Of a stretch of 64,000 bases of DNA, positions 40,071-41,876 are shown piece after piece. A model generated the notes under the pieces. That model searched no databases. It saw only the letters and a program-made list of their open reading frames with translations, and was not told where the DNA came from. Where the stretch lies: contig OZ024751.1 in NCBI GenBank assembly GCA_964016885.1, positions 5,828,001 through 5,892,000 of the forward strand, written 5' to 3'. Source of the stretch: Eledone cirrhosa (lineage: Eukaryota). A program made the translations under genes and the position numbers. Position 1 is the stretch's first letter; each line of letters opens with the position of its first letter.

Positions 40071-41001
40071 ATATATATATATATATATATATATGTATAT
40101 ATATATATATATATATATATATATATATATATATATATATATATATATATATATATATATATATATATATATATATATATATATATATATATGTACACGT
40201 ACATATATATATGTATACAGACGTACAGTAGTATGTATATATATATACATACATGCACACATATATATATATGTACGTATGGATTCACCGAACATTTATT
40301 ATAATGCTCGGTGTGTTTGTAAACAAACATCCCGTATTAAGCCGTAGTGTCTAGCAACCATCGTTGCTCGTTTGTTCAACACTGACAAAGGAACGCTGTA
40401 CTAGTTTCAAGCTTATTAGCTATCGTCAGCAACGTATACCTTCCTGCCAGATTGTTGAACGTATATATATACCTTATGCATATTAACGGCTGAGTAGCCC
40501 AATTTGCATATAGAGTGGGTTAATCGGCCGGGTGCACCGAAAACTATAAACGGAAAAAATGAAACAAAATTTTATTTCCCATTCTTAGTACGGCTGTTAC
40601 TTAAATATAATTATGTACACGTACATACATATATGTATACAGACGTACATTAGTATGTATATATATATACAAATATGCACACATATATATATGTACGTAT
40701 AGATTCACCGAACATTTATTATAATGCTCGCTGTGTTTGTAAACAAACATCCCGTATTAAGCCGTAGTGTCTAGCAACCATCGTTGCTCGTTTATTCAAT
40801 ACTGACAAAGGAACGCTGTGCTAGTTTCAAGCTTATTAGTTATCGTCAGCAACGTATACCTTCCTGTCAGATTGTTGAACGTATATACTTACCTTATGCA
40901 TATTAACGGCTGAGTAGCCCAATTTGCATATCGAGTGGGCTACTCAGCCGTTAATATGCATTAGGTAAGTATATACATTCAACAATCTGGCAGGAAGGTA
41001 T

Positions 41002-41044
41002 ACGTTGCTGACGATAGCTAATAAGCTTGAAACTAGTACAGCGT
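41002..41044 (+). ncRNA. Hammerhead ribozyme (family R)
   Basis: acgttg-CTGACGA-tagctaataagctt-GAAA-ctag-TA-cagcgt. Confidence 0.85.
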
Positions 41045-41419
41045 TCCTTTGTCAGTGTTGAATAAACGAGCAACGATGGTTGCTAGACACTACGGCTTAA
41101 TACGGGATGTCTGTTTACAAACACACCGATCATTATAATAAATGTTCGGTGAATCCATACGTACATATATATATGTGTTCATGTATATATATATATATGC
41201 ATACTACTGTACGTCTGTATACATATATGTATGTACGTGTACAAACTTATATTTAAGTAACAGCCGTACTAAGAGTGGGAAATGAAATTTCGTTTCATTT
41301 TTTCCGTTTATCGATTTCGGGGCACCCGGCCGATTAACCCGCTCGATATGCAAATTGGGCTACTCAGCCGTTAATATGCATCAGGTAAGTATATCTGTTC
41401 AACACTGGCAGGAAGGTAT

Positions 41420-41462
41420 ACGTTGCTGACGATAGCTAATAAGCTTGAAACTAGTACAGCGT
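41420..41462 (+). ncRNA. Hammerhead ribozyme (family R)
   Basis: Core identical to 41002-41044, 418 nt downstream. Confidence 0.85.
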
Positions 41463-41876
41463 TCCTTTGTCAGTGTTGAACAAACGAGCAACGATGGTTG
41501 CTAGACACTACGGCTTAATACGGGATGTTTGTTTACAAACACACCGAGCATTATAATAAATGTTCGGTGAATCCATACGTACATATATATATGTGTGTGT
41601 GCATGTATGTATATATATATACATACTACTGTACGTCTGTATACATGTATGTATGTATGCACGTGTACATACATATATTTAAGTAACAGCCGTACTAAGA
41701 GTGGGAAATGAAATTTCGTTTCATTTTTTCCGTTTATATATATATATATATATATATATATATATATATATATTAAAATAACAGATTAGAGTTTAAGCAA
41801 AGAATTGGTGCTTAATATATATATATATATATATATATATATATATATATATATATATATATATATATATATATAT

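Follow-up and report, generated by a model that had tools for sequence, protein, structure and literature searches.

Family R, whose non-coding 420-nt units each contain one predicted minimal type I hammerhead motif, is very probably a non-autonomous retroelement (a retrozyme) that the RT/GIY-YIG proteins of Penelope-like elements (PLEs) would integrate in trans. Where its insertions end, how a long end is paired with a short one, and the (TA)n sequence beside them together indicate integration by PLE RT/GIY-YIG. We studied R in a window of 64,000 nucleotides (the whole stretch of DNA that was analysed) and across the genome that the window comes from, a 3.0-Gb, TA-rich animal genome. Besides R, the window contains a LINE remnant, several PLE fragments, and many small fold-backs.

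At 40191-41737, a minus arm and a plus arm of R stand head-to-head between two (TA)n tracts (Table 1). The two arms are identical at 695 of 729 aligned bases, with three gap blocks. The left (minus) arm ends in ...gtacgtgtacat directly before (TA)n at 40191. In the plus copy, the same end motif finishes at 41670, which leaves the plus arm 67 nt longer than the minus arm. The norm for the family is a tail of 59 nt (unit position 317 versus 376), and the minus arm at 40191 ends a few bases early. On its own, the predicted hairpin of the tail is no better than those of shuffled sequences (z -0.8). A first-pass annotation of the window had described about 1.8 minus monomers folded back onto about 1.9 plus monomers, a tail of about 70 nt on the direct copy, (TA)n at both ends, and another R locus that ends at the same 3' point. 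All of these observations were borne out: we measured 1.78 and 1.91 units and a tail of 67 nt, the arms stop at 40191 and 41737 with (TA)n abutting each, and the other locus ends in ccatttat at 7134/7135. Small fold-backs of other families lie at 39655-40077, 41875-42400, 7210-7400, 14601-15293, 37982-38578, and 42413-43454; the first three have a one-sided extension of roughly 80, 120, and 75 nt, respectively (judged by eye).

Table 1. Features of the window, with positions counted from its first letter.
Feature	Position	Strand
Left (TA)n tract, presumed insertion target	40063..40190	
Inverted arm, 1.78 R units; short end at 40191, unit position ~308 (family mode 317)	40191..40939	-
Minimal type I hammerhead motif, core and GTA cut triplet intact	40393..40435	-
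Hammerhead motif, stem II mismatch, GTA changed to GCA; likely dead	40813..40855	-
Head-to-head junction, 4-nt overlap TGGG, within an imperfect 15-nt inverted repeat of the R unit (12/15 bases match)	40936..40939	
Direct arm, 1.91 R units; long end at 41737, unit position 376	40936..41737	+
Minimal type I hammerhead motif with a palindromic helix III and a cut predicted after 41038	41002..41044	+
Minimal type I hammerhead motif with a cut predicted after 41456	41420..41462	+
Tail on the direct arm only, 67 nt (59 nt by family mode)	41671..41737	+
Right (TA)n tract	41738..41773	
Second R locus, 81% identical subfamily, single arm, same long end (ccatttat, 7134/7135) before TA	6624..7135	+
Third R locus, ~81% identical subfamily, ~3.9 units, end near the short end, without TA flank	54356..56046	-
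Comparator: PLE family B (intact), fold-back of its 3' end in (TA)n, with the long end on the left and the short end on the right	62822..63096	
Broken PLE coding remnant, similar to family A	47791..50546	+
Broken PLE coding remnant, similar to family C	35435..36743	-
Broken PLE coding remnant, similar to family B	1019..1560	+
Frame-broken remnant with endonuclease- and RT-like motifs, presumably LINE-like (label from motifs)	2689..6322	+
Remnant presumably PIF1-helicase-like, Helitron-type (label from motifs)	11951..13454	+

The predicted hammerhead of R consists of a 6-bp stem I, the core, a 4-bp stem II, a palindromic helix III, and a GTA triplet. Core, helices, and triplet are all kept in three of the four units at 40191-41737. 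Across nine distinct rows, 98% of the cells pair and one stem I position has changed on both sides; 10 of 500 shuffles reached this score, which makes it modest. Stem II has an A-U closing pair with an unpaired U on either side and lacks the usual G10.1-C11.1 pair, so the activity of the predicted ribozyme is uncertain. The canonical architecture (G10.1-C11.1 pair and tertiary loops) is absent from R, whose motif is of the minimal, PLE-like type. An Rfam scan returned no hammerhead among the matches listed (150 of 226), just microsatellite-driven matches below gathering scores. The whole unit folds far better than shuffled sequences (z -8.0), partly via a self-complementary TA-rich segment. 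The sole frame of at least 100 aa over the unit is TA-derived, and no RT and GIY-YIG ORF was found within the unit or attached to it.

A 40-nt core of R has 4,687 exact matches genome-wide, and its reversed control has 0. For a census of insertion ends, we used the first 100 core matches in order along contig C1. These make up 71 sites, of which 70 were tabulated and one (a 21-kb array) was kept apart; requiring the exact core favours young, core-intact copies. The 70 loci comprise 37 head-to-head arrays, 31 single-arm arrays, and 2 complex ones. Among their 107 outer 3' ends, 44 lie at unit positions 372-377 (the long end, 41 of them at 376) and 40 at 303-321 (the short end, 29 of them at 317). 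Most ends (84 of 107) thus belong to two narrow classes at two sites 59 nt apart, and the 23 others are exceptions to this rule. Outer 5' ends, on the other hand, are scattered. The flank was TA-rich for 60 of the 84 classed 3' ends (24 exceptions), for 9 of the 23 other 3' ends, and for 7 of 33 outer 5' ends, compared to 5.2% of 10,279 background 30-mers. Genome-wide, the exact long end is followed by TATATA 2,412 times, versus 2,500 read-throughs, and it is retained in R subfamilies that are 73-81% identical.

The two kinds of end are paired in a regular way. Among the 37 fold-backs, 24 combine a long end with a short end, none has two long or two short ends, and 13 have one unclassified end (p about 1e-7). 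In other words, every fold-back with both ends classifiable is long+short; the tail may be on either arm. Of the 38 junctions between arms, 13 contain inserts, and 15 of the 25 insert-free ones overlap by at least 2 nt (26% in the null). R therefore shows the insertion signature of PLEs: a fixed 3' end, variable 5' truncation, an inverted truncated copy, a tail at one end, and a (TA)n target, within which target-site duplications are unreadable. The tabulation of 3' ends, arm endpoints, and flanks that the first-pass annotation had suggested thus gave termini that are non-random and enriched for (TA)n.

For comparison, we fetched four PLE families with long open frames (A-D) from the same genome. 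Their clade labels rest on motifs described in the available text of Craig et al. 2021 (PMC8557442). Families A (894 aa; RWK, DKT, CxCX5C) and C (DKT, CxCX5C) have Hydra-type motifs and tails of 96 and 181 nt, respectively. Family B (775 aa; DKG, CX4CxxC, CCHH) has Neptune-type motifs and a tail of 64 nt, and family D (777 aa, tail 35 nt) is Neptune-type and B-like as judged by its endonuclease part only. Pfam gave no family for the 894-aa protein of A and weak RT and GIY-YIG matches for the fragments in the window. The fold-backs are long+short in all four cases for A, the single case for C, and all six for D; for B, six of nine are long+short, two are long+other, and one is long+long. Because the four families pair their ends in this same way, we consider the layout of R to be the local PLE rule, and the proposed match to PLE-type fold-backs extends to intact families. 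The comparison of tails that had been suggested alongside it places the 59 nt of R inside the local range of 35-181 nt.

We detected no homology between R and the 3' ends of families A-D; that no autonomous parent was found among the families fetched counts against our reading. The last 45 nt of R gave a score against the short end of B (z 4.1) that was the best of any window of B on either strand, and none of the remaining 11 end-to-end comparisons, which covered A-C, was significant. The B-like motif is at the long end in R but at the short end in B, which is the wrong geometry, so B, a Neptune-type family, is only a weak candidate for the partner of R.

R was not found joined to a PLE body in the sampled loci. 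PLE coding fragments occur near 16 of the 70 R loci, and none abuts an R 5' end; the nearest on the same strand (at L116) is about 640 nt upstream of R, with a TA run in between. The first 30 loci had given the same outcome. No common body was found among the 33 outer 5' flanks, and 54 of 111 arms are longer than one unit and continue upstream into further R units, according to match maps. R is thus most likely a non-autonomous retrozyme, as far as its genomic copies indicate. Another explanation is that R arrays are tandem 3' ends (pLTR stacks) of a 5'-truncated autonomous PLE, so that R itself does not move. This would predict the same footprint. The available portions of the literature also report that PLEs can bear minimal hammerheads in tandem (PMC7229834) and that Xenopus retrozymes are homologous to pLTRs, and just four PLE families were sampled here. 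Nevertheless, we consider a pLTR stack to be improbable given the arms that run past one unit into R, the lack of a PLE coding fragment abutting any R 5' end in the 70 loci, and the absence of a common body in the 5' flanks.

A few R arrays are much longer. At C28:109.98-110.06 Mb, a satellite of at least 74 kb (with one gap unsampled) has private alleles and 7-unit higher-order repeats, and at C1:51.77-51.79 Mb, a satellite of about 21 kb has private alleles and 4-unit higher-order repeats. Two mid-sized arrays (L133 and L157) contain alternating identical units in 2-unit higher-order repeats. L133 (10 units) preserves its long and short ends in TA, and most variants of its long arm are missing from its short arm, which makes growth after insertion the most likely course. 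Private variants with higher-order repeats are confined to these four arrays and are not seen at 40191-41737. Twelve alleles private to the C28 and C1 arrays are all but missing among dispersed units (0-3 of 76-144), and we therefore rejected these two arrays as a master source. Unequal crossing-over is therefore a later step at some R loci and not an alternative to insertion.

These arrays also speak for the view that R is simply a satellite and that unequal crossing-over together with DNA fold-back inversion spread it without any RNA step, since higher-order repeats and identical alternating units show that the process is real at C28 and C1. As an account of the dispersed copies, this is largely refuted, and overall we judge it very unlikely. 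It cannot yield two fixed 3' ends with scattered 5' ends and strict long+short pairing; the near-absence of the twelve private alleles means that C28 and C1 are not the source; and L133 still ends long+short in TA. The first-pass annotation had proposed integration by a PLE RT/GIY-YIG with a (TA)n preference, rather than amplification by unequal crossing-over. The first part is supported by non-random (TA)n termini that are paired as in four PLE families. The second part is not supported as a general rule, as the private variants and higher-order repeats indicate that the long arrays grew at the DNA level after seeding.

Two further explanations seem to us extremely unlikely. Other machinery might have moved R, either LINE twin priming or a Helitron-type rolling-circle DNA transposase. 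LINE 5' inversions exist, and the window has a LINE remnant at 2689-6322; Helentron-associated repeats have an internal microsatellite and a 3' hairpin, as the R unit does. But twin priming leaves a single fixed 3' end and segments that do not overlap, while both outer ends of R are fixed and its arms overlap in sequence; there is no poly(A) tail among the R ends listed; and the layout of R matches four coding PLE families. The inversion at 40936-40939 might instead be an assembly artefact, as the flanks are TA-rich and, among short-read contigs and RAD reads at 40712-41140, thousands of other R copies stack and no listed piece bridges the junction. However, the arms have 34 differences in 729 aligned bases, and indels as well, and 37 other fold-backs have different junctions and follow the long+short rule that is common to coding PLEs. 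At one contig joint at the window-junction position (run X2), six bases of telomere-like letters stand between the two sides; this is another copy, not the one at 40191-41737, and the nearest analysed short end is L133:7255-7275.

Sequence variants give some indication of what PLE proteins would have copied. The fraction of diagnostic sites at which units agree is 0.89-0.92 inside a locus and 0.51 between loci (leaving out two higher-order arrays), and each R locus has one subfamily haplotype. Rare variants are shared at 17% when the two arms are compared at equal rank, at 15% within one arm, at 6.5% across both arms and ranks, and at 1.2% between loci. This sharing within loci implies that both arms were derived from a single RNA or a single source, or that they were homogenised afterwards. 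Six variants are present in all covering units of both arms, but several of the six are minor subfamily alleles found at more than one locus. Five variants, one of them at 40191-41737, are common to the two arms at one rank and missing from another rank, which points to non-identical units in some templates; a monomeric circle predicts no such pattern and is not supported as the sole template. Gene conversion between arms could also cause these five. An A-to-G excess among locus-shared variants was not apparent by inspection of the variant lists. We also considered a cleaved linear monomer as the template and rejected it: just 1 of 76 inner 5' ends is near the hammerhead cut (3 expected), so there is no pile-up. 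This absence fits the finding, in the available text of Frangieh et al. 2024 (PMC11167929), that the substrate of a PLE in vitro is mainly uncleaved RNA.

That the template was a circle has, in our estimate, somewhat less than an even chance. A circle is favoured indirectly, in that the long arrays are not the source of the dispersed multimers and linear copying alone would presumably shorten arrays with every round. One probably young multimer (L062:399-2627) has about 4.7 near-identical units (0-1 differences) of a 476-nt subfamily that is 73% identical to R, and its long end is in TA.

In the mechanism that we propose, R RNA would be transcribed and would be longer than a unit, either as an uncleaved multimer or as a circle. 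A PLE complex would bind and nick both strands of (TA)n, and reverse transcription would be primed from two start sites 59 nt apart, one for each DNA end. The two 5'-truncated cDNAs would then be joined, often via short homology, to give a head-to-head array with a tail on one arm, and some insertions would subsequently expand to long satellites through DNA-level duplication. Alternatively, the long site may be where both arms begin, with the tail resulting from subsequent trimming of one of them, as Craig et al. suggest in the available part of PMC8557442. A stronger version of our proposal, which we offer tentatively and think is rather unlikely in full, is that a PLE RT/endonuclease dimer uses a single circular 420-nt hammerhead RNA as the template for both ends of a (TA)n break, starting for each end at a different one of two fixed sites 59 nt apart and rolling past the ribozyme sites. 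The 3' region of R would then serve as a portable signal with two start sites, by which a Neptune-type PLE is recruited in trans. If true, this would make the PLE tail mechanism and the mobilisation of retrozymes directly testable with a short RNA.

Mobilisation of retrozymes by PLEs has already been proposed (Cervera and de la Pena 2020, PMC7229834; Li, Clavereau and Pollet 2026, bioRxiv 10.64898/2026.07.22.740005; available portions of both). Retrozymes, their proposed dependence on PLEs, the inverted copies and tails of PLEs, and non-autonomous PLEs are all in print. In the open-access literature searched, we found no paper in which retrozyme insertion ends are tabulated against PLE ends. 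As far as the available text of the two papers goes, non-LTR retrozymes resemble R in having non-coding tandem units of a few hundred nt with one type I hammerhead each, and in ranging from dispersed monomers to long multimers that coexist with PLEs. The motif of R is of the minimal PLE type, in contrast to their canonical motif, although the definition of Li et al. admits minimal motifs. The published arguments, in those portions, are common hammerheads, co-occurrence, and pLTR homology, whereas ours is insertion ends. Local amplification starting at a PLE end is the view preferred by Li et al., whereas the short multimers of R themselves carry the insertion footprint. RNA circles and cleavage have been demonstrated for the published families, whereas the ribozyme of R is a predicted one; in the source text available, eight of nine Xenopus retrozymes tested did not cleave in vitro.

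Comparison to PLEs themselves gives a similar mixture. Endonuclease-positive PLEs (Neptune, Hydra, Naiad, and Penelope/Poseidon), as described in the accessible part of Craig et al. 2021 (PMC8557442), share with R the 5' truncation, the inverted truncated copy, the tail at one end, and (TA)n targeting. Unlike them, R has no RT/EN ORF, has a 420-nt unit, and has a tail of 59 nt rather than 30-40 nt. According to the same text, Chlamys PLEs such as MRC1 are non-autonomous, like R, and have pLTRs and multicopy head-to-tail insertions moved by PLEs; but MRC1-type elements resemble their autonomous partner at the 3' end, whereas R has no clear partner homology, and the Chlamys clade is described there as lacking canonical hammerheads, whereas R has a hammerhead motif. 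A biochemical parallel is Poseidon_Ac in vitro, again from the available text (PMC11167929): two internal RT start sites have a spacing equal to the tail, as in our reading of R, both strands are nicked in AT-rich DNA, and insertion needs no hammerhead cleavage. Poseidon_Ac is autonomous with a cis template, however, and R is most likely non-autonomous. Also, the use of its start sites is reported there without a strand difference, whereas the genomic fold-backs here pair long with short strictly. A further published hammerhead type shares with R a small palindromic helix III, an extra nucleotide after A9, and a dimer-type architecture, and pairs of its motifs 100-700 bp apart on opposite strands have been noted; R differs in its 4-bp stem II without G10.1-C11.1.

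So far, the mover of animal retrozymes has been argued from co-occurrence and homology, and insertion ends are more direct evidence. The ends of R agree quantitatively with those of coding PLEs in its own genome. In addition, the strict long+short pairing limits the ways in which PLE tails could form: each DNA end would have a single start site or else a single trimmed end. Four intact candidate enzymes and a 420-nt template on which two start points are mapped make a ready in vitro system.

We also noticed several features of the other repeats. PLE families B and D have a palindromic helix III in a hammerhead-like motif whose core is a U3-A8 variant, TTGAAAA for CTGANGA (3' ends of L188-L191; L154:2070-2110), and the motif of family B has 11,049 exact matches. 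The short ends of family D (L240, L247, L249, L254, L259, and L264) often have an expanded (CT)n run ahead of (TA)n, which suggests slippage during priming. Finally, a second hammerhead repeat family with a unit of about 465 nt forms a long+short fold-back in (TA)n at L189:5990-7501, with a 72-nt tail, and its last 60 nt resemble those of R (z 3.4).
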